A stretch of DNA of 63,630 bases, filler included. It is 5 parts of 5 records of this genome, joined end to end, with 100 filler letters (N's around TTAATTAATTAA, not from the genome) between each part and the next. Parts side by side here need not be neighbours in the genome. Positions count along the whole stretch, not along the records: positions 8,510 to 19,547 come from SRR31156797_11423; 4 more parts are not named here. The stretch is one strand, 5' to 3'. The position numbers and the translations under genes are program-made. Below are positions 8,410 through 58,560 of the stretch, piece after piece (the first letter of the stretch is position 1; every line of letters starts with the position of its first letter). A model generated the notes under the pieces. That model made no database searches and had not been told where the DNA came from. It was given only the letters and a program-made list of their open reading frames with translations.

Positions 8410-8509
8410 NNNNNNNNNNNNNNNNNNNNNNNNNNNNNNNNNNNNNNNNNNNNTTAATTAATTAANNNNNNNNNNNNNNNNNNNNNNNNNNNNNNNNNNN
8501 NNNNNNNNN
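8410..8509. other. Artificial contig spacer
   Basis: N run containing TTAATTAATTAA (stops in all frames); base composition changes abruptly across it. Confidence 0.97.
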
Positions 8510-9451
8510 CTTACTATTATGGAAGAAGGAACTGAGTTGCTTGGCCGTTTACAAAAACATTTGGCTGGCGACAAAGAAGTTAAACTTCCAATTCTTACTT
8601 CTTGTTGTCCGGGATGGGTTAACTTCTTCGAAAGTAATTTCCCGGATATGTTAGATGTGCCTTCAACTGCTAAGTCACCTCAACAGATGTTTGGTGCAAT
8701 TGCTAAAACATACGTGGCTGAAGAGTTAGGAATTAAGCGCGAGGATATGGTGGTTGTTTCAATCATGCCTTGTCTAGCTAAAAAATATGAAGCGCAACGC
8801 CCTGAATTTGCTGTTGATGGTAATCCTGATGTTGATTTCTCTTTATCAACTCGTGAGTTAGCGCAAATGATTAAAGGAGCTAACATCAACTTTGAAGATT
8901 TAACTGATGAGGATTTTGATAATCCAATGGGAGAATCTACAGGTGCGGGTGTTATTTTTGCCAACACAGGTGGTGTAATTGAAGCGGCTGCTCGTACAGC
9001 TTACGAAGTTCATACCAAGAAAAAGTTAGATAAAGTGGAGTTCGAAGCTTTACGTGGTTTCGAAGGTATTCGTTCTGCTACAGTTGATTTCGACGGACTT
9101 CCAATTAAAATAGGTATTGCTCATGGTTTAGGTAATGCTCGTAAACTATTAGAAGATGTACAAGCTGGTAAATCAGAGTTTCATGCTATAGAAATTATGG
9201 CTTGTCCTGGTGGATGTATTGGTGGTGGTGGTCAGCCTTATCACCATGGAGATACCAGCATCCTTAAAAAGAGAGCTGCTGCAATTTACCGTGAAGATGA
9301 AGGTAAAACAATCCGTAAGTCGCATGAGAATCCATTCATTGTAAAATTATACGAAGAGTTCTTGGGTGAGCCTTGTGGAGAGTTGTCTCACAAGTTGTTG
9401 CATACACACTATTTTGATAAGAAAAAGAAAATTGAAATCAATAACGACTAA
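8510..9451 (+). CDS. [FeFe]-hydrogenase catalytic subunit, 5'-truncated
   Basis: H-cluster motifs TSCCPGW, MPCLAKKYE and EIMACPGGCIGGGGQP, plus SHKLLHTHY. Confidence 0.95.
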   Translation, partial: LTIMEEGTELLGRLQKHLAGDKEVKLPILTSCCPGWVNFFESNFPDMLDVPSTAKSPQQMFGAIAKTYVAEELGIKREDMVVVSIMPCLAKKYEAQRPEFAVDGNPDVDFSLSTRELAQMIKGANINFEDLTDEDFDNPMGESTGAGVIFANTGGVIEAAARTAYEVHTKKKLDKVEFEALRGFEGIRSATVDFDGLPIKIGIAHGLGNARKLLEDVQAGKSEFHAIEIMACPGGCIGGGGQPYHHGDTSILKKRAAAIYREDEGKTIRKSHENPFIVKLYEEFLGEPCGELSHKLLHTHYFDKKKKIEINND

Positions 9452-9456
9452 GAGTT

Positions 9457-9933
9457 ATGGCAGAGTTAAAATTAGCTGAAAGCAAAGTTCAGGAACTAAA
9501 GGACGTTTGCAAAAAGTTCGATTACGATAAAGGCGAATTAATTAATGTGCTGCACGCTGCCCAGGGAATTTTTGGGTATTTGCCTGCTGAAGTACAGGAA
9601 ATTGTTGCCGACCAATTAAATGTGAATATTGCTCATGTATATGGTGTAGTTACTTTCTATTCTTTCTTTACCATGATTCCTAAAGGGGAGCATCCTGTAT
9701 CCGTTTGTATGGGAACAGCTTGCTACGTGCGTGGTGCAGAAAAAGTACTAGACGAGTTTAAGCGTTTGTTAGATGTAAAAGTCGGAGAAACTACTCCTGA
9801 TGGTAAATTCTCAGTAAGCAGCCTTCGTTGTGTTGGAGCATGTGGATTAGCTCCGGTAGTAACAGTAGGTGAAAAAGTTTACGGTAGAGTAGCACCTGAA
9901 GATGTGAAAGATATTTTAGCAGAGTACAATTAA
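9457..9933 (+). CDS. NuoE/HndA-like [2Fe-2S] hydrogenase subunit
   Basis: VVTFYSFF, CMGTACYVRG and CVGACGLAP motifs. Confidence 0.92.
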   Translation: MAELKLAESKVQELKDVCKKFDYDKGELINVLHAAQGIFGYLPAEVQEIVADQLNVNIAHVYGVVTFYSFFTMIPKGEHPVSVCMGTACYVRGAEKVLDEFKRLLDVKVGETTPDGKFSVSSLRCVGACGLAPVVTVGEKVYGRVAPEDVKDILAEYN

Positions 9934-9957
9934 AACTCAGATAAAATAAACAAAGAT

Positions 9958-9989
9958 AAACCCGTTCTGCTTGTTGGAACGGGTTTTTT
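9958..9989 (+). terminator. Intrinsic terminator of the hydrogenase operon
   Basis: AAACCCGTTC/GAACGGGTTT stem followed by a T run. Confidence 0.8.
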
Positions 9990-10206
9990 ATTTCCAGATA
10001 AAGGTTAGTAGTCATAGATATAATTAGCTGTCCTTCTAAATGTCTAGAAAGAAAGGAGGAGTTCCACGAAACATGAGCGGTTAATACAATGAACTTAATT
10101 ATAACAACAAAAATTCGGTTCACTATATTTAACATTCGGCAACTATCTTTTATGATAAAATCCAATCATACATTCAGAATGATTGTACACATTTGCAAAA
10201 AAAAGA

Positions 10207-11121
10207 ATGCGCATAGATAAAGTGAAAGGGCATATGGCTATGATAGTAGCCAATATATCATGGGGGTTAATGGCTCCTTTTGTGAAAACGGTGGTGCTAG
10301 AAAGTAATATAAACGCTTGGAATATTGTTGCTTTTAGAGTTGCCGGTGCTGCCCTGGCATTTTGGATGACATCTTTTTTTATACCACGCGAAAAGGTAGC
10401 TCCAAAGGACTTACTCAAGCTGATATTTGCGGCGCTGTTTGGTATTATTCTTAATCAGGGAGTATTTGTGTTGGGCGTTTCCTACACATCACCAATAAAT
10501 GCTTCCATTGTAACCACTACTCTGCCTATAATTGCCATGATTATCGCGGCTTTTTATCTGAAAGAACCCATTACCTGGAAAAAGGTGGCGGGGATTATTG
10601 TAGGGGCATGCGGCGCTTTAATTATCATATTAAACAGTGCCAATGGCAATGGCACGGGAGATTTAGGTTTAAAAGGAATTTTATTGTGTTTTATGGCGCA
10701 GTTTAGTTATGCGGTATATTTCGTATTCTTTAAAAAAGTAATCAGCAAGTATTCGCCCATTACTAATATGAAATGGATGTTTTTATTTAGCTCGCTTATT
10801 TACATACCGCTTACCTGGTCGCAAATTACAAATATTGAATACGCTACTTTACCCTCTTCGGTGATAGGTGAACTGGCATTTATTGTTTTAGGCTCAACAT
10901 TTTTATCATATATGATGATTCCGATTGCCCAAAAATATCTGCGCCCTACTGTGGCTACCATGTACAATAATGTGCAACCTATAGTGGCCTCTATTGCCGC
11001 CGTGCTGTTACAGCTCGATTATTTTGGATGGTATAAAACGCTCGCGATTCTTTTGGTGTTCACCGGTGTTTATTTGGTAACTACAAGTAAGGCTGTAGAA
11101 ACAGAAAGTGTGGAGGAGTAA
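10207..11121 (+). CDS. EamA/DMT family transporter
   Basis: About ten TM segments in two EamA-like repeats. Start set at MRIDKV. Confidence 0.85.
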   Translation: MRIDKVKGHMAMIVANISWGLMAPFVKTVVLESNINAWNIVAFRVAGAALAFWMTSFFIPREKVAPKDLLKLIFAALFGIILNQGVFVLGVSYTSPINASIVTTTLPIIAMIIAAFYLKEPITWKKVAGIIVGACGALIIILNSANGNGTGDLGLKGILLCFMAQFSYAVYFVFFKKVISKYSPITNMKWMFLFSSLIYIPLTWSQITNIEYATLPSSVIGELAFIVLGSTFLSYMMIPIAQKYLRPTVATMYNNVQPIVASIAAVLLQLDYFGWYKTLAILLVFTGVYLVTTSKAVETESVEE

Positions 11122-11214
11122 AACTGGAATTAAGAAGGGATTGAAGCTTTGAGCGTATATCCTTAATAATTTCGAAGAGTAAATGGCTTTAGTATAAAAA
11201 GGCGAGAATTGTAT

Positions 11215-11465
11215 TGAGCTAGGGAAGTTTGTCCTATTACTATGGGAGATTATTCCCATTTACTATAGGAGAATCGTCCCCTTACCATCCACCGATCGTT
11301 TCCATTAGTATCCTCCAGTCGCTTCCATTGGTATTCTACAAATGTTTCCATTACTATGTCGAAGACTTTGATATGAGTATGTCACAAATATTGGCATGAG
11401 TATGTCGCACTCTTCGACATTACTATGTAACACTCTTTTATATGAGTATGTCGCAAGGTTCGACA
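11215..11465 (+). repeat. Degenerate tandem array of 11 units of 22-23 bp, many forming 6-bp hairpins
   Basis: Units start at 11215, 11237, 11260, 11282, 11305, 11328, 11351, 11374, 11397, 11420 and 11443, with a T(T/G)A(C/G)TAT-like head. Confidence 0.85.
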
Positions 11466-11635
11466 TGGAGATATCGTGATTTAATCACTGATTAGTGAAG
11501 GAACTTTGTTTGTTGTTTGATTCGGGCTTTGGAGTATTCTGTTGGGATAACAAACTGTAAAAGGTTAGTGGGGGGAGTTCTTTACTTATATCAGGTTATA
11601 GATCGATATGGAAAGCTCAGTTTGTCAGTGTTTAT

Positions 11636-12040
11636 TTAGATCTCTCTATCAACCCAATTTTCAATTTGAATATTCGAAATCCTATCAAACTCTTTTGTAT
11701 TTTCAGTTACCATTACCAAATCTTTTTCAACAGCAGTACAACCGATTAATAGATCAAAATCACTTATAGGAGTTCCATTTTTTCTTAATCGGGCTTTCTC
11801 TTTTCCATATAAGTAAATAGAGTCGTAAATAGGCAGAATTGTTATTTGGTCTACAAATAGGTCAATTAAATGATGATTTTTTTGTGGATTTGCGCTGTTT
11901 TCGGCTCCATAAACAAGTTCTGCAAGTGTTATTTCAGATATGGCACATTGATTTATTCCTGCTTCAACAAGCTTATCAATTAATCCGAATTTACCTTTGA
12001 AAAAATGAATACAAATGTTGGAATCAAGTAGATACTTCAT
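11636..12040 (-). CDS. vapC: VapC PIN-domain toxin
   Basis: YLLDSNICI, ITLAELVYG, DLLIG and VTENTKEF motifs. Confidence 0.92.
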   Translation of the reverse strand: MKYLLDSNICIHFFKGKFGLIDKLVEAGINQCAISEITLAELVYGAENSANPQKNHHLIDLFVDQITILPIYDSIYLYGKEKARLRKNGTPISDFDLLIGCTAVEKDLVMVTENTKEFDRISNIQIENWVDREI

Positions 12041-12279
12041 TAGAATTCAGCTAAGTTATCTTTGTCAGTTCTTGAAGCTCTTAATTCATTGATTATTTCA
12101 TCAGAATCTTTTGAATCATCCCAAGCACCGTATAAACTACTTAAATCGAAATTTTTGTCATCACTAACTTCTATTGATTCGGTTAGTTTTACAATTAACT
12201 TCTTCTTCGATTTGTTATCTAACTTTGTCAAAAAACTAAAATATTTATCTATCGCTCTATTTGATAATGCAAATCCCAT
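12040..12279 (-). CDS. Putative antitoxin of VapC
   Basis: Small protein whose stop overlaps the vapC start; acidic C-terminus LYGAWDDSKDSDEIINELR. Confidence 0.75.
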   Translation of the reverse strand: MGFALSNRAIDKYFSFLTKLDNKSKKKLIVKLTESIEVSDDKNFDLSSLYGAWDDSKDSDEIINELRASRTDKDNLAEF

Positions 12280-12367
12280 AAGCAAAAAATTACTTTATTC
12301 AAATATACAACAATTAAGAAGACTAAGAAGTTTTCTGTTTATGTGAGAACTATTGATAGGAATGTCT

Positions 12368-13552
12368 TTAATATTTATTGAGGATGGGATTTACCATTAA
12401 CTTTTCCTGTAGTTTCTGACGACGTACCAATAAGACGACGAACATAACGGCAATGATTAAATATCCCATACCAATAATGGAAGCATAATTTACACCCATA
12501 TTGTAATCGATAGATAAGCCTCCGCTGTACGATCCTAATGCATTTCCAAAGTTAAAGGCGATTTGAATCATGGCGGCTCCCATCATTTCACCTCCTCTGG
12601 AATTTTGTAAAACCAATAGCTGGTTGGGTGCACCTACCATAAACAAACAACAGGTACAGATACACATCATAAAAATGGATAAGTAGGATACAAAGGGTAG
12701 TAAAAAGATCACCACCATAGCTACGGCTGCAATGGAGTAAGCCATAGCCACTACGGATGCACTACGAAAACGATCGGATAGTTTCCCTCCGAAAACATTA
12801 CCCAGCACCATGCTAATACCACTTAGCATCATAATCCAGGTCATGTCCGAAGCTTTAAAACCCGACATGTCGGTCATGAGTGGCGCTATATAGCAGTAAA
12901 AACAAAATATACCACAATTTCCTAATCCGGTAGCCAATAGTATAAACCAGGGTTCAGGGTTTTTTAGGAATTTAAACTGGCCTTTTAATCCGCTATCAGG
13001 AAGAGGCGCTAAGGATGGCATCCACTTTAATAAGAAAAACAGGTTAAAAGCGCCCCAGGCACCGGTAATGTAAAATATCAATCGCCACGAAAAATGATTA
13101 CAGATATAAGCGCCCAGCGGTACGCCTATTAAATTCGCAATCGTCATTCCCGACACCATAATAGCCATAGCCGTAGAGCTTTTCCCTTCGTCGGCGAGTT
13201 TTTCGGCAGCAATAGAACCTACACCAAAAAAGGCACCATGTGGTAATCCGGAGATAAATCGCATGGCCATCATAAACCAGTAGTTATGTGATAATCCGGC
13301 CATGGTATTGCCCACGGCATACAAAAATATTAATAAGAAGAGCACTTTTTTTAGCGGGAACTTGCGGGCACTCAGTAACACCACCGGAGCACCAACACAT
13401 ACACCTATGGCATAAGCCGAAATCAAGTGACCTGCCGAAGGAATACTTACCGACATATCTTTGGCCACATATGGCAAAATACTCATCATTACAAATTCGG
13501 CAATACCCAAACCAAAGGTTCCTAAAGCTAAAGGGACTAAACTCTTCTTCAT
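12368..13552 (-). CDS. MFS transporter (AraJ-like)
   Basis: LALGTFGLGIAEF and RFISGLPHGAFFG motifs; about 12 TM segments. Confidence 0.85.
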   Translation of the reverse strand: MKKSLVPLALGTFGLGIAEFVMMSILPYVAKDMSVSIPSAGHLISAYAIGVCVGAPVVLLSARKFPLKKVLFLLIFLYAVGNTMAGLSHNYWFMMAMRFISGLPHGAFFGVGSIAAEKLADEGKSSTAMAIMVSGMTIANLIGVPLGAYICNHFSWRLIFYITGAWGAFNLFFLLKWMPSLAPLPDSGLKGQFKFLKNPEPWFILLATGLGNCGIFCFYCYIAPLMTDMSGFKASDMTWIMMLSGISMVLGNVFGGKLSDRFRSASVVAMAYSIAAVAMVVIFLLPFVSYLSIFMMCICTCCLFMVGAPNQLLVLQNSRGGEMMGAAMIQIAFNFGNALGSYSGGLSIDYNMGVNYASIIGMGYLIIAVMFVVLLVRRQKLQEKLMVNPILNKY

Positions 13553-13683
13553 TATTAAGCATCAATTATTTCAAGTGCAAAAATAAATGAGAGAATTGAT
13601 GCGTACAATGTGCAGAGCGTTAATTAAGTATAAATTGTGGGGTATTAGGATAATATGACGAACTAGGTTTTACTTGCTATGCT

Positions 13684-15006
13684 TTATAATGAGTTCTCAA
13701 TGGTTTCTATCACTTTTTCTTTTTTCAGAATATATAGCCCCAATCGATCTGCTGTAATACCTTCTTTTATAAGATAGGTATAGTTTGGTTTATCATTAAG
13801 CATTTTAGCTTCAAAATATTGGAATTTAACCTTTGGGTTATTCTGAAGTCTTTCAGCCGCTTCAACAATATGAGTCGATATAAAATATATTCCTTTATTA
13901 ATTTTAGAAAGCGCTTCAATCACGGAATAAGATGCTTCATAGGCATCTTTAACATTTGTACCTCTAAATAATTCATCGAATACAATAAATAAATTTCCAT
14001 AACTTTTAATTTTTTCTGCTACTTGTTTTACTCTTGATACTTCGCTATAAAAGTGGCTGTAACCTTTATTGATACTGTCGGATAAATTTATGGTGGTTAA
14101 TATTCCGCTAAAAAGAGATAGTTGCAGTCTTTTTGCTGGAATCGGGAAGCCGATATGTGAAAGAAAAATAGAAATACTTAGTGATTTTAGAAATGTTGAT
14201 TTTCCAGCCATATTTGGTCCTGTTAAAATACAAATATGATGGTCTTTCATTTCAAAATCGTTTTTTACAGGATCTTGGATAAAAGGATGAAACAGACCTT
14301 CGGCTTTTAAAAAATTATTATCAGTTGTAAACTCAGGTAGCGTAAAATTGAATTTAATAGCAGCATATGCAATAGATGAATATGCATCTAATTCATAAAA
14401 TAAGTGTAAAATTTCATTGAATCTTATTGATTCCGCTTTTCTAAAAAGGTGATCTAATCTGCCAATTTCGTGCGGATTTAGCTTTTGGGCATCTTTATAG
14501 TTTAAAACTATTTTTAGTTTTGATTTCTCTATCTTGTCTCGAATATTTTGCTTTAACTCTTTAATGTATTGACAACTAAAATCTACCGATTCATCAAGTG
14601 AATATTCGTATAGTTCATTTAATAAATGAATTGAAAACTTAATGCCTTTTTTAATTAAATAGTACTCGTTGTCAGGACTATATAAATATTTTAGTTCCCG
14701 GATATATGATTTTGTAATAGAGAATCTATTAGGCACATTTTGTTGAGATAAATAGTATTCTATAAAATCAATACAGTCTTTCTTTAGAACTATGAAAGGA
14801 CATACTTTCTGAAGATATCTGATTGCCTCAATTCGAATGTTTATTTCGTTAATGTTGGATAGTGGATTAAGGAAATAGCTGAAAAGTATTTTCTTGCCTT
14901 TTTTTGTTTTTGTATGATTAAATATAGAAAAGATTGATTTTTCACCATTTAAATTATCTAATATATCTAAATCATTATACGTCTGGTTATCAATTTCAAA
15001 GTTCAT
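13684..15006 (-). CDS. Short MutS-related ATPase (domain V plus partial core; no mismatch-recognition domain I)
   Basis: TGPNMAGKST, SHFYSEV, FDELFRGTN and STH motifs; only 440 aa. Confidence 0.85.
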   Translation of the reverse strand: MNFEIDNQTYNDLDILDNLNGEKSIFSIFNHTKTKKGKKILFSYFLNPLSNINEINIRIEAIRYLQKVCPFIVLKKDCIDFIEYYLSQQNVPNRFSITKSYIRELKYLYSPDNEYYLIKKGIKFSIHLLNELYEYSLDESVDFSCQYIKELKQNIRDKIEKSKLKIVLNYKDAQKLNPHEIGRLDHLFRKAESIRFNEILHLFYELDAYSSIAYAAIKFNFTLPEFTTDNNFLKAEGLFHPFIQDPVKNDFEMKDHHICILTGPNMAGKSTFLKSLSISIFLSHIGFPIPAKRLQLSLFSGILTTINLSDSINKGYSHFYSEVSRVKQVAEKIKSYGNLFIVFDELFRGTNVKDAYEASYSVIEALSKINKGIYFISTHIVEAAERLQNNPKVKFQYFEAKMLNDKPNYTYLIKEGITADRLGLYILKKEKVIETIENSL

Positions 15007-15286
15007 TGATTTCTTTTATGGTTTCTACACTTTCATCAAAGTTTATACCATGTTTTTATGTCAATGATTAGAATTACTATTTATTATTTCGTTTTCTTGT
15101 GATCTGCTAAAATAAATGCCGTTTTTAATTATAATTGATTCCTTCCATTTTCTTCCTAGTCCAGAAAATATATTTAGAGGTCGGTAGTTAAGCATTTATC
15201 AATTCTGTCTGATAAATTTGATTTGCATCGACCTCTATCATTTTATATTCTACAATTTTGGTTCATTCTTAGCTACCTAAAATGGC

Positions 15287-15417
15287 ATACAACAATACAG
15301 CTATAGCCTGTGCCACATTTTTCAGAATACAACTTAGCTTATTAGCATTACGTGCTTTCAAAATTAAGTTTCAATAAACAAACAAGCTGCGGCATTGGCT
15401 ATTAGCTGATGTTATGC
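15287..15417 (-). mobile_element. attC-like integron cassette recombination site (131 bp)
   Basis: Minus strand reads R'' GCATAAC, 5 nt, L'' CTAATAGC ... L' GCTATAG, 7 nt, R' GTTGTAT. L'' is the reverse complement of L' plus one extra base. It starts about 20 nt after the blaR1-like stop. Confidence 0.75.
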
Positions 15418-15439
15418 ACTTATGGTTTTTAACTATCTA

Positions 15440-16684
15440 TTAATTCCATACAAGAGTAAGACGAGCTCCATAACCTTCAGGTGTCAACTGATATTTAAAT
15501 GATTTAAATGAAGCAGCTGGTTCACTTTTATTAGAATTAAAGTAACATTTTTGTATCGTACCATTGTCGCCACTTAAAATCCCTTTTTGTAAATCATGCG
15601 TTCCCTCATTTACCTGTATTATTTCATAAAAATCATTGTGTCGCACTATAAATAATGCATTATTTAAACTCACAATTTTATTATTAATGGAGTTTGTTTT
15701 ACCCATTTCGAAGATATATTCAAAATTATTGAATGCACTTATTTGGATATTGTGTTTTTCAATAATTGGGAACCACCATTCTTTTTCGTAGTTTTTCAAA
15801 CTATCTTTAGGTATGGTTTTTTGACCATATGTAATGGTAACAGCCAATAAATAAACCAAAGGAAATATTGCAATTTGTCTTACAATAGTTTTTACTAAAG
15901 ATTCTTTTCTTTTCATCATAATTAGTCTTTTTTTAGTAAGTGAGAAATTTAAATCACTGGCCAGATATGTTGAGTTATTTCGAAATACAAGATTTAATAA
16001 TATATTTTGATAATCTTTTAGGTTTTGCGATTGTAAAACTCTCTTATCAGCAAGGTATTCATGGTTTAATTGAAGTTCTTTCTTAATAATCCATATAACA
16101 GGATTGAACCAGAAAATTATTTTAACTATTTCAACTAATAATATATCCAATGAATGATATTGCTTACAATGAGCCTGTTCATGTGAAATTAAACTATTAT
16201 CTATTTTACCATTTTCGAACTCAGTTATATTTACAATAATGTAATTCAGAAAAGAGTATGGCAATGTTTTATCTGTCGATAGTATGATATGGGGTAAAGT
16301 ATTAACAACTATTTTAGAATTCTTTATTGTGTTGGTAATTTTATACAAATTGAAAACAAATCGAAACGATAAGATACAGGAAATCAAAATATAAACTACA
16401 TATAAGATATGATGTAAATTTAATGTATTATTTATTTGTTCTTTTTCAATTGTCCCTTGTACACTAATGTTATTAATTGAAGAGGAATAATCCTCAATGC
16501 TTTGGCTAATTGCTAAATTGAAATCTGTTGTGATTTGAATAAAAGGAATTATAAATGAAAAGAGTATCGCAAATAGTAAATAAAAACGATTGAATTTAAA
16601 TGTCTTTATATTTTTGAGAAATAATAAGTACAATAAATATAATATCGTAATACTTACTGTCGATTTGATAACATACTCAATCAT
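15440..16684 (-). CDS. BlaR1-like M56 metallopeptidase sensor
   Basis: FNRFYLL, HEQAH (HExxH), FWFNP, HEYLAD and KKRLIMM motifs. Confidence 0.9.
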   Translation of the reverse strand: MIEYVIKSTVSITILYLLYLLFLKNIKTFKFNRFYLLFAILFSFIIPFIQITTDFNLAISQSIEDYSSSINNISVQGTIEKEQINNTLNLHHILYVVYILISCILSFRFVFNLYKITNTIKNSKIVVNTLPHIILSTDKTLPYSFLNYIIVNITEFENGKIDNSLISHEQAHCKQYHSLDILLVEIVKIIFWFNPVIWIIKKELQLNHEYLADKRVLQSQNLKDYQNILLNLVFRNNSTYLASDLNFSLTKKRLIMMKRKESLVKTIVRQIAIFPLVYLLAVTITYGQKTIPKDSLKNYEKEWWFPIIEKHNIQISAFNNFEYIFEMGKTNSINNKIVSLNNALFIVRHNDFYEIIQVNEGTHDLQKGILSGDNGTIQKCYFNSNKSEPAASFKSFKYQLTPEGYGARLTLVWN

Positions 16685-16685
16685 A

Positions 16686-17063
16686 TCATTTTTGTTTTTT
16701 GTTGGTTTCTAGTTTGTTATCAACAATCTGTTTTAATTCCTCTAAGTCCTTTGTACTTAAATTTGTCTCGTTAGTGAAAAATGAAGCAAATTGAGAGGCA
16801 GAATTATTAAAGAAATCTTTAACCAAAGAATTAATTTGTTTTGAAAAATATTGATTCTTTTTAATCAATGGATAATACTCTCTGTTACTGCCATGTTGGT
16901 TAAATCCAACAAATCCTTTGTCAATCATCCTTTTTAATAAGGTTGCAAGAGTAGTTGAGGCAGGCTTTGGTTCTGGAAATTCTTCTCGAAGATTTTTCAT
17001 ATATGCTTTCTCCAATTTCCAGAGGTGTCTCATTACTTGTTCTTCTGCATTTGTCAATTGCAT
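16686..17063 (-). CDS. BlaI/MecI/CopY family repressor
   Basis: LTNAEEQVMRHLW, TTLATLLKRMIDKGFV and YYPLI motifs; directly upstream of the M56 gene. Confidence 0.93.
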   Translation of the reverse strand: MQLTNAEEQVMRHLWKLEKAYMKNLREEFPEPKPASTTLATLLKRMIDKGFVGFNQHGSNREYYPLIKKNQYFSKQINSLVKDFFNNSASQFASFFTNETNLSTKDLEELKQIVDNKLETNKKQK

Positions 17064-17080
17064 GATTCTAAATTTTGAAA

Positions 17081-17121
17081 TTATACTCTACAAATGTAGA
17101 ATATAATTTCAGATTGTCAAA
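17081..17121 (-). promoter_or_regulatory. BlaI-type operator overlapping a Bacteroidota sigma70 promoter
   Basis: Palindrome TTATAcTCTACA-AA-TGTAGAaTATAA (17081-17106) with a TACAnnTGTA core; minus strand has TTTG, 19 nt, TACATTTG (-33/-7). Confidence 0.8.
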
Positions 17122-17162
17122 TATATATTGCTTTTATTTTATGCAGTATATTTCTTCCACTT

Positions 17163-17171
17163 GTGCCTAAC
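17163..17171 (-). mobile_element. Cassette 5' boundary core site GTTAGGCAC
   Basis: Matches GTTRRRY and is complementary at 8 of 9 positions to GTGCATAAC at the cassette's 3' end. Confidence 0.6.
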
Positions 17172-17298
17172 AGAACAATAATCGTAATTGCGTGTATCGT
17201 TTTTAACTATGCGAACGCATATACATAATAAATATAGGGTAGCTGAATTATTTAACTTAAAACTCTGGTTTCTATATTGGATTAATTATTTCTAGAGC

Positions 17299-17332
17299 AA
17301 AAAAAGCCCGTTCTGATGAATCAAAACGGGCT
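17299..17332 (-). terminator. Intrinsic terminator
   Basis: AGCCCGTT/AACGGGCT stem with a minus-strand T run downstream of the reductase gene. Confidence 0.75.
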
Positions 17333-17354
17333 GATAATATTATATGGAAAGGAA

Positions 17355-19355
17355 TTAATTGCGCGACATCATGGCTGCAATTCCTCCTCCGTTTTTAACG
17401 TTTGAAAATCCACGGCTTTCCAGTATTTGTTTGGCATAAGCCGAACGTGCACCGGAAGCACAGTAAACAATGATTTCTCTATTAGGCTCGCCTAAATCTG
17501 CTCTGTTGGCCATAATATCATCCAAAGGAATATTTACGGCTTCAGGGAATGCACCTCCCATAAACTCCTCACGGGTTCTAACATCTACAATCACTCTGGC
17601 ATTTTGGTCTACTTTTTCTTCCTGTGCTGCTTCTGGCTTTTCTTCCTCTGCATGATCTTCAATTAGTTTATCTTCAATAGGAAGAATACCAATCTGCAAA
17701 TGATTAAAACCAACGGTAATAGCTTGCCTTTGTAAAGAGGTGTGACCACCTGAAATATTAACCACCTTTTTGTATCCGGCTCCAACCAGCGTTCTTAATG
17801 CCTGGTGACCTTTTTTCCCGGTTTCATCATACACAATAATTAATCGGTCTGCAGGCAATTCACTTACATGCTCAGCCAATAGCTCCAATGGAATATTAAC
17901 GGCTCCTTCTACATGACTTTTACGGAATGCAAAAACATCACGCACGTCAATAAATAAATGGCTCTTACCTTCAATCAGTTGATCTAATTCAGATACAGTA
18001 ACCGATGGACTAAAACCAGACATTTTGTTTTCAGCTGTATAAGCAGCCATGTTCATCGCATCATTGGCAGTTCCAATTGGTGGTGAATAAGCAAAATCGA
18101 TATCCGCTAAATCGCTAACGGTTAATTTAGCCGCTGTAGCAGTAGCAATAATATCCAATCGTTTATCCGCACCCTTGTATCCAGCTGTTTGTCCTCCTAG
18201 TATAATACCTGTTTTTTTATCGAATACCACCAATACCGAAACCGTTTCTGCACCCGGATAATATGAGGTATGATGTTCCTTATGAACGACAACCGCATCC
18301 GCATCAATACCGGCTGCTTTGGCTTGTTTCAACGATAATCCGGTTGTTCCGGCAACAGCCTCAAACACACGAACCACAGAAGTGCCAATAGCACCTTTGT
18401 AGGCATGATCTCCGCCTAAAGCATTCTCAGCAGCAATACGTCCTTGTCTGTTTGCTGGTCCTGCCAAAGGAATACGAACTTTTTTATTGAACACACGATG
18501 CTCCAGTTCAATCATATCTCCAGCCGCATAAATGTTATCGTCAGATGTTTTAAGTCTGTCATTTACCAGTAAACCACCTGCTTCACCAATCGCCAAACCA
18601 GCGTCAATGGCTAATTGTAATGTTGGTCGTACCCCAATGGATAATAAAACCATATCTGCTTCCAGTTCTTTACCATTGTCCAGAATAACAGAATCAGGAT
18701 GGATTTCAGTAACGCCGGAGTTGGTATGCACACCCACGCCATACGAATGCAACTCTCGCTCTATAAAACCAGCTGTTTCGGCTTCCATAATGGACATAAC
18801 GTGAGGCATTTTTTCAACCACGCTTACTTTTAAGCCTCTTTTTACAAGCGCTTCTACCATCTCCAAACCAATAAAACCACCACCTACAACAACAGCTGTT
18901 TTAGGATTGCGTTCTTCCAGGTGATAGGTAATCTTATCCATATCCTCCAGTGTCCAAAGTGTAAACACATGGTCGTTATTGGCTCCCGGAAGATCAGGTG
19001 CAATTGGACGTCCGCCCTGAGCTAAAATCAGTTTGGTGTATTCAAATTCTTTGTGTTCACCGCTTCTTCCATCAATCGCTTTAATCACTTTGTTTTCTCT
19101 TTCGATGGAAGTTACAATGGTATGTATATGCACTTCAACGGCATATTGCTCGTTAAAGCTTTCGGGGCTTTGTAATATCAGTTTCGAACGACTTTTAATA
19201 TCGCCGGCTATATAATAAGGTAATCCACAGTTGGCAAATGAAATATCCGGACCTGCTTCAAGCATCGTAATTTTTGCATCCGGTGATAATCTTCTTGCTT
19301 TGGCTGCTGCTGTTGCTCCTGCAGCAACCCCTCCGATAATGATAATTTTTTCCAT
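17355..19355 (-). CDS. CoA-disulfide reductase with two rhodanese domains (Npsr-like)
   Basis: GGVAAG, SFANCGLPY, GGGFIGLE and AYSPP motifs; rhodanese loops YDETGKKG and YCASGARS. Confidence 0.88.
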   Translation of the reverse strand: MEKIIIIGGVAAGATAAAKARRLSPDAKITMLEAGPDISFANCGLPYYIAGDIKSRSKLILQSPESFNEQYAVEVHIHTIVTSIERENKVIKAIDGRSGEHKEFEYTKLILAQGGRPIAPDLPGANNDHVFTLWTLEDMDKITYHLEERNPKTAVVVGGGFIGLEMVEALVKRGLKVSVVEKMPHVMSIMEAETAGFIERELHSYGVGVHTNSGVTEIHPDSVILDNGKELEADMVLLSIGVRPTLQLAIDAGLAIGEAGGLLVNDRLKTSDDNIYAAGDMIELEHRVFNKKVRIPLAGPANRQGRIAAENALGGDHAYKGAIGTSVVRVFEAVAGTTGLSLKQAKAAGIDADAVVVHKEHHTSYYPGAETVSVLVVFDKKTGIILGGQTAGYKGADKRLDIIATATAAKLTVSDLADIDFAYSPPIGTANDAMNMAAYTAENKMSGFSPSVTVSELDQLIEGKSHLFIDVRDVFAFRKSHVEGAVNIPLELLAEHVSELPADRLIIVYDETGKKGHQALRTLVGAGYKKVVNISGGHTSLQRQAITVGFNHLQIGILPIEDKLIEDHAEEEKPEAAQEEKVDQNARVIVDVRTREEFMGGAFPEAVNIPLDDIMANRADLGEPNREIIVYCASGARSAYAKQILESRGFSNVKNGGGIAAMMSRN

Positions 19356-19488
19356 ATGAATATTTATTTTTTATTATTTACTGTTTTATTCGGAATCCTC
19401 ATATGATTCCTAATTATTATGGTGTCAAAAATAGTAGCCTCTGCCTTCATTCTAAAAGAAATGCAGTTGAAACAGATCCGGTTCTGAA

Positions 19489-19502
19489 TTGATCTTGCTC
19501 AA
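19489..19502. promoter_or_regulatory. Possible FNR/Crp-like box
   Basis: TTGATcttgCTCAA, one mismatch to TTGAT-N4-ATCAA, upstream of the reductase. Confidence 0.3.
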
Positions 19503-19547
19503 CTTTTTTATTGTTATTAACCTGAGTTCGACATAAAATTTCGGATT

Positions 19548-19647
19548 NNNNNNNNNNNNNNNNNNNNNNNNNNNNNNNNNNNNNNNNNNNNTTAATTAAT
19601 TAANNNNNNNNNNNNNNNNNNNNNNNNNNNNNNNNNNNNNNNNNNNN
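19548..19647. other. Artificial contig spacer
   Basis: N run with TTAATTAATTAA. Confidence 0.97.
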
Positions 19648-40260: not shown

Positions 40261-40360
40261 NNNNNNNNNNNNNNNNNNNNNNNNNNNNNNNNNNNNNNNN
40301 NNNNTTAATTAATTAANNNNNNNNNNNNNNNNNNNNNNNNNNNNNNNNNNNNNNNNNNNN
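40261..40360. other. Artificial contig spacer
   Basis: N run with TTAATTAATTAA. Confidence 0.97.
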
Positions 40361-58460: not shown

Positions 58461-58560
58461 NNNNNNNNNNNNNNNNNNNNNNNNNNNNNNNNNNNNNNNN
58501 NNNNTTAATTAATTAANNNNNNNNNNNNNNNNNNNNNNNNNNNNNNNNNNNNNNNNNNNN
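58461..58560. other. Artificial contig spacer
   Basis: N run with TTAATTAATTAA. Confidence 0.97.

Follow-up and report, generated by a model that had tools for sequence, protein, structure and literature searches.

A non-coding tandem array of 22-23-bp units, many of them small hairpins, belongs with BrickBuilt and other repeats of constant size and variable sequence

The window (the whole 63.6-kb stretch of DNA analyzed in this work) is made of five contigs separated by N/TTAATTAATTAA spacers at positions 8410-8509, 19548-19647, 40261-40360 and 58461-58560. The G+C content alternates between about 63% and 28-41% along these contigs, so that the pieces may derive from different organisms of one bin. 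The tandem array that is described here is carried by a low-GC contig of 11 kb (8510-19547), where it is placed between the 3′ ends of two convergent transcription units: (i) an EamA-family transporter gene (10183-11121, + strand; Pfam PF00892, E = 3.5e-42) whose stop is located 94 nt 5′ of the array and (ii) a VapBC (PIN) pair including a PIN-domain toxin gene (11636-12040, - strand; Pfam PF01850), whose stop is located 171 nt from the array, and an upstream 81-aa ORF (12040-12285, - strand) without Pfam match. An MFS transporter gene lies beyond this ORF. No terminator-like site was found between the EamA gene and the PIN gene, so that read-through from the EamA gene into the array is likely. 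A scan for sigma-70-type promoters at the array locus did not return more sites than shuffled sequences. The -7 box of Bacteroidota-type promoters has the consensus TAnnTTTG; none was found beside the array, the sole nearby box (TATATTTG at 12307, - strand) fitting the PIN operon. Both convergent operons likely extend over the array, which would then be transcribed passively within their 3′ ends.

The array itself (11215-11465) consists of eleven abutting units of 22, 23 and 22 bp followed by eight units of 23 bp. These units had been listed by the first-pass annotation, and tiling, TRF and junction-motif shuffles all confirmed them. TRF resolves the array into three period-23 blocks with 66-80% matches. 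The junction ATKRSTAT at 23-bp spacing (≤2 mismatches) has nine occurrences within the array and two in the rest of the window; none of 100 shuffles reaches this total of 11 (mean 1.21). A CRISPR array was ruled out, as the units abut without spacers. The locus is a real, non-coding tandem array, many units of which are small hairpins. Each unit is made of a 4-nt linker and a segment of about 19 nt that has A-T pairs at both ends and often forms a 5-7-bp hairpin. Three unit types, all described on the + strand, follow each other: (i) units 1-3 ("A type", 11215-11281), with stems of the GGGA/TCCC kind, of which units 1 and 2 fold and unit 3 folds partly, (ii) units 4-6 ("B type", 11282-11350), which are C/T-rich and, as already noticed at first reading, keep the head and the period without folding (helix of 2), and (iii) units 7-11 ("C type", ATGTCG...CGACAT, 11351-11465), which all fold. 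A head-like sequence in register (TTTAGTAT) suggests, with low confidence, a decayed twelfth unit at the 5′ edge (11190-11214, + strand); this stretch is not common to the allele of the relative described below, in which homology begins at 11223. On the other side, a tail conserved in the relative (11466-11565, + strand) starts with decayed units, which appear to fill its first 20-45 nt and include a small hairpin (GTGAT-TTA-ATCAC), and continues with a T/G-rich stretch. No inverted terminal repeats surrounding the array and tail were found within 11050-11700. With its three unit types, its decayed edges and its lack of transposon ends, the window array would be an old heterogeneous copy.

The folding of the units was compared with two kinds of simulated sequences. 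The initial description is confirmed: each of units 7-11 closes a 7-nt loop with six pairs, and wherever these stems depart from Watson-Crick pairing (four pairs in all), the pair is G-U on the + strand; units 1-2 fold too, with stems unlike those of units 7-11. An unbroken helix of at least 5 pairs is found in 7/11 units if G-U pairs are allowed and in 3/11 with Watson-Crick pairs alone. Shuffled cores give a mean of 1.2 folding units, and none of 5000 shuffles reaches seven. Neutral decay from one perfect ancestor, against which the first-pass annotation had proposed to judge the pairing, gives seven or more folding units with a probability of 0.0013 (star tree, matched to 50% pairwise identity), a simulation that treats the units as more independent than they are, given the close kinship of units 7-11; counted by unit type, two of the three types fold.

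The first-pass annotation had proposed that a + strand RNA with several hairpins, acting as a sponge or decoy or processed into ~23-nt products, or else single-stranded DNA, is under selection for its folding. Several features of the locus point in this direction. Besides the number of units that fold only with G-U pairs and the four G-U wobbles of units 7-11, the + strand folds better than its shuffles (z = -2.63, 0/100), whereas the - strand does not (z = -1.12, 14/100), and the non-Watson-Crick pairs of the window lineage comprise six G-T versus one A-C. Read-through from the EamA gene would provide a transcript, and some loci of BrickBuilt, a minisatellite of Porphyromonas gingivalis, are transcribed, one of them overlapping a proposed sRNA, according to the passages of Klein et al. 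(2015, PMC4596501) considered here. However, no TAnnTTTG box adjoins the array, and units 4-6 as well as one whole array of the relative (L022) do not fold, while another (L135) has A-C mismatches in its C-type units. Furthermore, an Rfam scan of 10500-12500 with E up to 10 gave nothing but chance hits to snoRNAs and miRNAs, with best E values of 0.64-6.5, all far below gathering scores.

The contig is collinear with the chromosome of a Saccharicrinis MAG (G001, 5.7-Mb genome), with 97% identity over 8510-11120, 95% for the MFS gene and 96% over 17164-19547. This relative carries an orthologous array (L070) followed by a 97-nt tail whose homology ends at about 11564. Six units, among which units 2 and 3, are identical between the two arrays. 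By contrast, each genome has two units that the other lacks: units 9 and 10 in the window (46-base skip in the relative) and two A-type units in G001. The same allele as in G001 was found in sequencing run X2, which is hence not independent of G001, and paralogous arrays are present on contigs of run X1. The number of units at one locus thus differs between close relatives, as among strains carrying BrickBuilt. Three arrays were found in all in G001: L070, L022, which consists of B-type units throughout, and L135, which is 75% identical to the window array and keeps the A-B-C order of units. The A-type stems of L135 (ATGGGA/TCCCAT and ATAGGA/TCCTAT) differ on both sides of one pair.

Purifying selection on the array and tail was considered, as their conservation seemed fivefold above that of the fourfold sites of the MFS gene, but it was dropped since intergenic DNA shows the same degree of conservation all over the contig. 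Compared to G001, the tail carries 4 substitutions in 97 positions, the other intergenic DNA of the contig 36 in 728 and the fourfold sites of five genes 113 in 817. As the rate of the tail matches that of other intergenic DNA, the array does not exceed the non-coding DNA around it in conservation. The folding units common to both orthologues have ~60 stem positions, none of which is substituted (~3 expected), and four substitutions fall in the non-folding unit 5; these numbers are too small to weigh.

Both edges of the array-plus-tail block are breakpoints relative to G001. On the 5′ side, the 102 bases of the window at 11121-11222 are replaced in G001 by 9,166 bases carrying DUF805, DUF58 and MoxR-type ATPase genes, and the breakpoint sits in the head of unit 1. 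On the 3′ side, 11566-12367, which carries the PIN gene and the 81-aa ORF, corresponds to L070:3059-3885, which carries MNT and HepT genes (PF01909, PF01934); the swap of the toxin-antitoxin cassette is precise, between the common tail and the stop of the common MFS gene. However, a third swap, located away from the array (13649-17163), exchanges genes encoding a MutS2-like protein, a BlaR1-like M56 peptidase and a BlaI-like repressor for three small ORFs without Pfam match in G001. Such islets are common in the region and, therefore, the coincidence of the array edges with breakpoints is weak. Two other repeated sequences were noticed on this contig. The 33 nt of its end (19515-19547) are present at five other places of G001 with 93-97% identity, besides a longer match at 83%, and probably mark the end of a dispersed repeat at which the assembly was interrupted. 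About 60 nt at 17175-17239 match, at 80-83%, sequences located near the L022 array (~100 nt away) and the L135 array (3.5 kb away).

The neighborhood of a toxin gene raises the question of a functional link. VapC toxins cut the anticodon loops of tRNAs, and RNA antitoxin repeats of the ToxI type are tandem non-coding repeats adjoining an RNase toxin gene, located upstream and on the same strand (type III systems). The array has a similar neighborhood, as the 3′ end of an RNase toxin gene faces its tail in both genomes (PIN in the window, HepT in the relative), and its hairpins with 7-nt loops resemble anticodon arms. The array could thus be an RNA decoy or antitoxin-like repeat whose hairpins soak up the adjoining toxin. 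Unlike ToxI-type repeats, it lies on the wrong side and the wrong strand, downstream of the toxin gene and convergent with it. Moreover, the cassette was swapped while the array stayed, each toxin gene is preceded by an ORF in antitoxin position (MNT in the relative, the 81-aa ORF in the window), and L070 alone has a toxin gene as nearest gene among 47 other loci (among the matches listed). We consequently regard such a partnership as very improbable.

Related arrays were found in other genomes. A search for three junction motifs in phase with a 23-bp period, in one genome per species, found the motif at this period at at least 120 loci. Among the matches listed, and by record title, 83 loci belong to 40 Bacteroidota genomes and 37 to other phyla. 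The Bacteroidota carriers among these matches include Prevotellaceae, Bacteroidaceae, Tannerella, Porphyromonas levii and Paludibacter, as well as Saccharicrinis, Arcicella, Ekhidna and Balneolaceae. Cultured species with head-bearing arrays are Bacteroides pyogenes, Prevotella histicola and Arcicella aurantiaca, besides P. levii. Seven of the Bacteroidota genomes listed harbor 11, 7, 6, 6, 6, 4 and 4 loci, and the core sequence is genome-specific in the listed multi-copy genomes. When 400 further Bacteroidota genomes were drawn evenly, not one showed three in-phase junction motifs; the family is therefore sporadic, and "phylum-wide" would be a wrong label for this head-bearing family. The arrays found outside Bacteroidota were used as a control for what the search pattern alone selects: among the matches listed, a mean best-helix score of at least 4.5 is reached by 38 of the 84 Bacteroidota arrays (window included) versus 5 of the 37 others (Fisher p = 0.0008), and stems are weak or absent in the 46 remaining Bacteroidota arrays. 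Head, period and in-register hairpin were nevertheless encountered together in Electronema (L044, L091), in Treponemataceae (L046, L053, L065) and in one Anaerolineae (L081), which suggests transfer or convergence. In addition, a collection of viral sequences gave 16 matches, some of them in giant-virus bins.

The arrays are mostly intergenic. Among the matches listed, 43 of the 45 arrays with enough flanking sequence overlap no ORF of at least 100 aa, and the neighbor configurations of the 45 loci listed are divergent (n = 13), convergent (n = 12), co-oriented (n = 10) or anti-oriented (n = 10), both counts relying on crude ORF picking. The tabulation of flanking genes thus does not support a fixed relation to genes: arrays are oriented relative to flanking genes as expected from random insertion. 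The nearest genes are mostly housekeeping ones, encoding tRNA synthetases, PFOR, IF-2, ClpB, thymidylate synthase and a clamp-loader subunit of DNA polymerase III. No transposase family was recognized among the nearest-gene matches (95 of 143 ORFs scanned). In one Prevotellaceae MAG, six of the seven arrays are carried by an element that has inverted ends (ACGTGAGTTCGA...TCGAACTCACGT) and whose leader and tail are shared by its copies, two of which have flanks duplicated over 7 bp. In a Bacteroidaceae MAG, a 13-nt inverted repeat brackets the arrays. Such a layout is that of BrickBuilt. A transposon origin is not demonstrated for the window array, since it has no inverted ends and only three arrays were found in G001.

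REPs are short extragenic palindromes, dispersed and genome-specific, that have a conserved tetranucleotide beside their hairpin and occur singly or in inverted pairs. The units of the array resemble them by a semi-conserved 4-nt linker beside a hairpin whose foot is conserved and whose upper stem varies, and could accordingly be served by a Y1 transposase (RAYT or IS200/IS605 type) reading the hairpin and the adjacent tetranucleotide. Unlike the units of REPs or BIMEs, they are arranged head to tail at a fixed 23-bp period and not as single copies or inverted pairs. The Y1 transposase domain (PF01797) was found in two of five array-bearing genomes that were searched, some of them incomplete MAGs or drafts, and not in the MAG with seven MITE-borne arrays; furthermore, the inverted ends and flank duplications of the Prevotellaceae MAG point to a DDE-type transposon. 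A REP-like element is hence a scarcely probable origin of the array.

The symmetry of the units was evaluated on an ungapped alignment (A3) of one real unit per genome-specific family (43 families among the matches listed, plus two units from the window, 45 in total). Six pairs were counted in a fixed register, of which the outer two are A-T pairs imposed by the search pattern. In these 45 units, 75.9% of the cells are paired, compared to 59.9% in shuffles (0/500) and 32-42% with slid partners, and the covariation score is 0.405, compared to 0.163 in shuffles (0/500) and at most 0.185 with slid partners. All four Watson-Crick types occur at every inner pair. In 21 of the 45 units, three or more of these four pairs are Watson-Crick (~5% expected), and in nine units all four are (0.4% expected). 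The dyad is absent from about half of the families, as it is from units 4-6 of the window. Since the in-register pairing of the cores is far above that of shuffles (0/500), dyad symmetry is a real family trait; the symmetry claimed by the first-pass annotation for the window array thus recurs in independent arrays elsewhere. This recurrent dyad is the one feature that is not predicted by neutrality alone.

The strand bias, by contrast, is not robust beyond the window lineage. The raw counts of G-T versus A-C on the head strand are 110 to 57 among the matches listed. After symmetric stem finding and with each distinct unit counted once per genome, they decrease to 22 to 13 in Bacteroidota (p = 0.18), or nine genomes to six, among the matches listed; with one unit per family, a trend of 21 to 10 persists (p = 0.07; among the matches listed). 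The G-U excess is true in the window lineage but is not a family rule. Together with the random orientation of the 45 listed loci relative to their flanking genes, this argues against selection acting on a + strand RNA in particular, which we now consider distinctly unlikely.

Absence of strand and orientation bias is, on the other hand, what would be expected from a phased platform of double-stranded DNA, in which each palindromic unit would be the site of a dimeric or structure-preferring protein (nucleoid-associated, HU-like or transposase of a parent element) and in which a spacing of about two helical turns would keep the sites nearly in phase. This idea is also raised in the passages of Subirana and Messeguer cited here (PMC8161180). 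It is consistent with a dyad that stays in register with the junction over unrelated cores, with a single core type per genome in multi-copy genomes and with a 22-23-bp period that is preferred independently of the head motif. A gene encoding an HU-HIG, HU-DNA_bdg or DUF4469 protein is the nearest one at four of 47 loci (L018, L022, L025 and L068; among the matches listed); the adjacency with HU-HIG/DUF4469 genes is unlikely to be due to chance in two genomes and provides a weak lead. However, the reverse check of this lead found PF18291 hits in four array-bearing genomes, none of them beside an array, and no candidate protein was identified. The combination of three unrelated core types in the window array, one of which (B) lacks the dyad, and the weak or absent stems of 46 of the 84 Bacteroidota arrays (among the matches listed) also fit poorly with a platform, as does a period of 23 bp, which makes 2.2 helical turns and not 2.0. 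Altogether, we hold a platform to be unlikely. A paper published in 2017 notes an expansion of an HU clade of the HU-HIG type in Bacteroidetes and its transfer to spirochaetes, an unusual combination of phyla that also harbors hairpin arrays in the present work.

The first-pass annotation stated that the array matches no feature class. This does not hold: the window array is not a new class but belongs to the BrickBuilt kind and to the repeats of constant size and variable sequence, as these are described in the passages of two papers (PMC4596501 and PMC8161180) used here. In the former (Klein et al. 2015), BrickBuilt is a 23-nt minisatellite located inside a MITE, intergenic and present in 19 copies in P. 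gingivalis, whose unit number differs between strains, which has no Rfam match and whose leader and tail were active as promoters in E. coli reporters. Within those passages of PMC4596501, its authors report no BLAST match outside P. gingivalis. Like BrickBuilt so described, the window array is a 23-nt direct repeat, head-to-tail, without spacers and intergenic, with imperfect units whose number varies between strains, without Rfam match or known function. The fetched BrickBuilt units (AGACCATAGTATCCTCTCATGTG) also display an AT-N3/4-AT junction and an inner dyad, and the related arrays of one Prevotellaceae MAG lie between inverted ends. There are, however, differences: (i) the linker has 4 nt in the window array and 3 nt in BrickBuilt, (ii) the window array lacks a leader and a tail ending in inverted repeats, (iii) it combines three unit types, and (iv) only three arrays were found in the genome of the relative, compared to the 19 copies given in the passages of PMC4596501. 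The fetched BrickBuilt units were found in two of 86 genomes of their family, and a BrickBuilt unit has no match in the window at up to 3 mismatches.

The "enigmatic" bacterial tandem repeats of Subirana and Messeguer have a constant size (20-23 or 52 nt) and a variable sequence (passages of PMC8161180 used here). As in those passages, the arrays analyzed in this work have a fixed period of about two helical turns and unrelated sequences, form several species- or genome-specific families, are non-coding, contain short conserved motifs within their units and lack a known function. Furthermore, 348 kb of Bacteroidota flanks contain 15 other tandem repeats with a period of at least 11; seven of them have a period of 22-23 and no head motif, which fits a class of constant size and variable sequence as portrayed in those passages. 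The passages are centered on Bacillus and do not contain "hairpin", "palindrom" or "Bacteroid"; compared to the repeats that they describe, a dyad in register with a common junction is a feature of the Bacteroidota arrays found here. Our literature search returned no such arrays in Bacteroidota beyond BrickBuilt, a point on which the species lists of Subirana and Messeguer (2020, J Bacteriol) may bear. In P. levii (G002), the units of at least 12 loci combine a constant part of 17 nt (ATTAGTATATATTAA-type) with a hexamer that varies, and oppositely oriented arrays abut at two of these loci. Units of the ATTAGTATATATTAA type are also present in an unrelated "Bacteroidetes" MAG (L015, L028, L084, L106, L119 and L120).

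Taken as a whole, these data lead us to favor, with little more than even confidence, a selfish or neutral hairpin minisatellite of the BrickBuilt kind, driven by slippage. Palindromic units would fold in single-stranded DNA at the replication fork, favoring the gain or loss of whole units by slipped-strand events, and intrastrand template switching would copy changes from one arm to the other. As template switching would transfer changes between arms, the arms could stay complementary without selection on an RNA or on a protein site, and the recurrent dyad may thus result from the mechanism itself, hairpin-favored slippage combined with template switching. Miniature transposons or recombination would disperse families within a genome, where the copies would then decay in place. 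This reading fits best because the arrays are dispersed, genome-specific, intergenic and orientation-free, with a fast turnover of units, decay at the edges and, elsewhere, carriage by MITEs. The window array probably has no dedicated function for the cell.

Some points run counter to a neutral minisatellite: the in-register dyad in unrelated cores, the + strand bias in the window, the A-B-C order kept in L135, the absence of substitutions in ~60 stem positions (a weak point) and the promoter activity of the BrickBuilt leader and tail, on account of which, as far as the passages of PMC4596501 go, members of the class may act on neighboring genes. Furthermore, the platform and the + strand RNA keep a sizeable share of the probability because either explains the dyad equally well. 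A broader proposal, which we regard as quite improbable, would make 22-23-bp hairpin minisatellites a structural device that is maintained here and there among Bacteroidota and has reached some Treponema and cable bacteria by transfer, in which a dedicated structure-specific factor would read a linker and an A-T-closed hairpin every two helical turns and which would mark sites of cassette exchange. Candidate factors would be a fast-evolving protein of the HU-HIG type or a nuclease, and the exchanges would be represented here by the toxin-antitoxin swap on one side and the 9.2-kb insertion on the other.

Taken alone, the array is unexceptional within a class of repeats that has been little studied, and it leaves the reading of the genome unchanged. 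Such arrays break assemblies, differ between close strains and can mimic a covarying RNA structure. Overall, the common period, the A-T-closed junction and the in-register dyad found over unrelated cores provide a testable structural hypothesis for the "enigmatic constant-size repeat".
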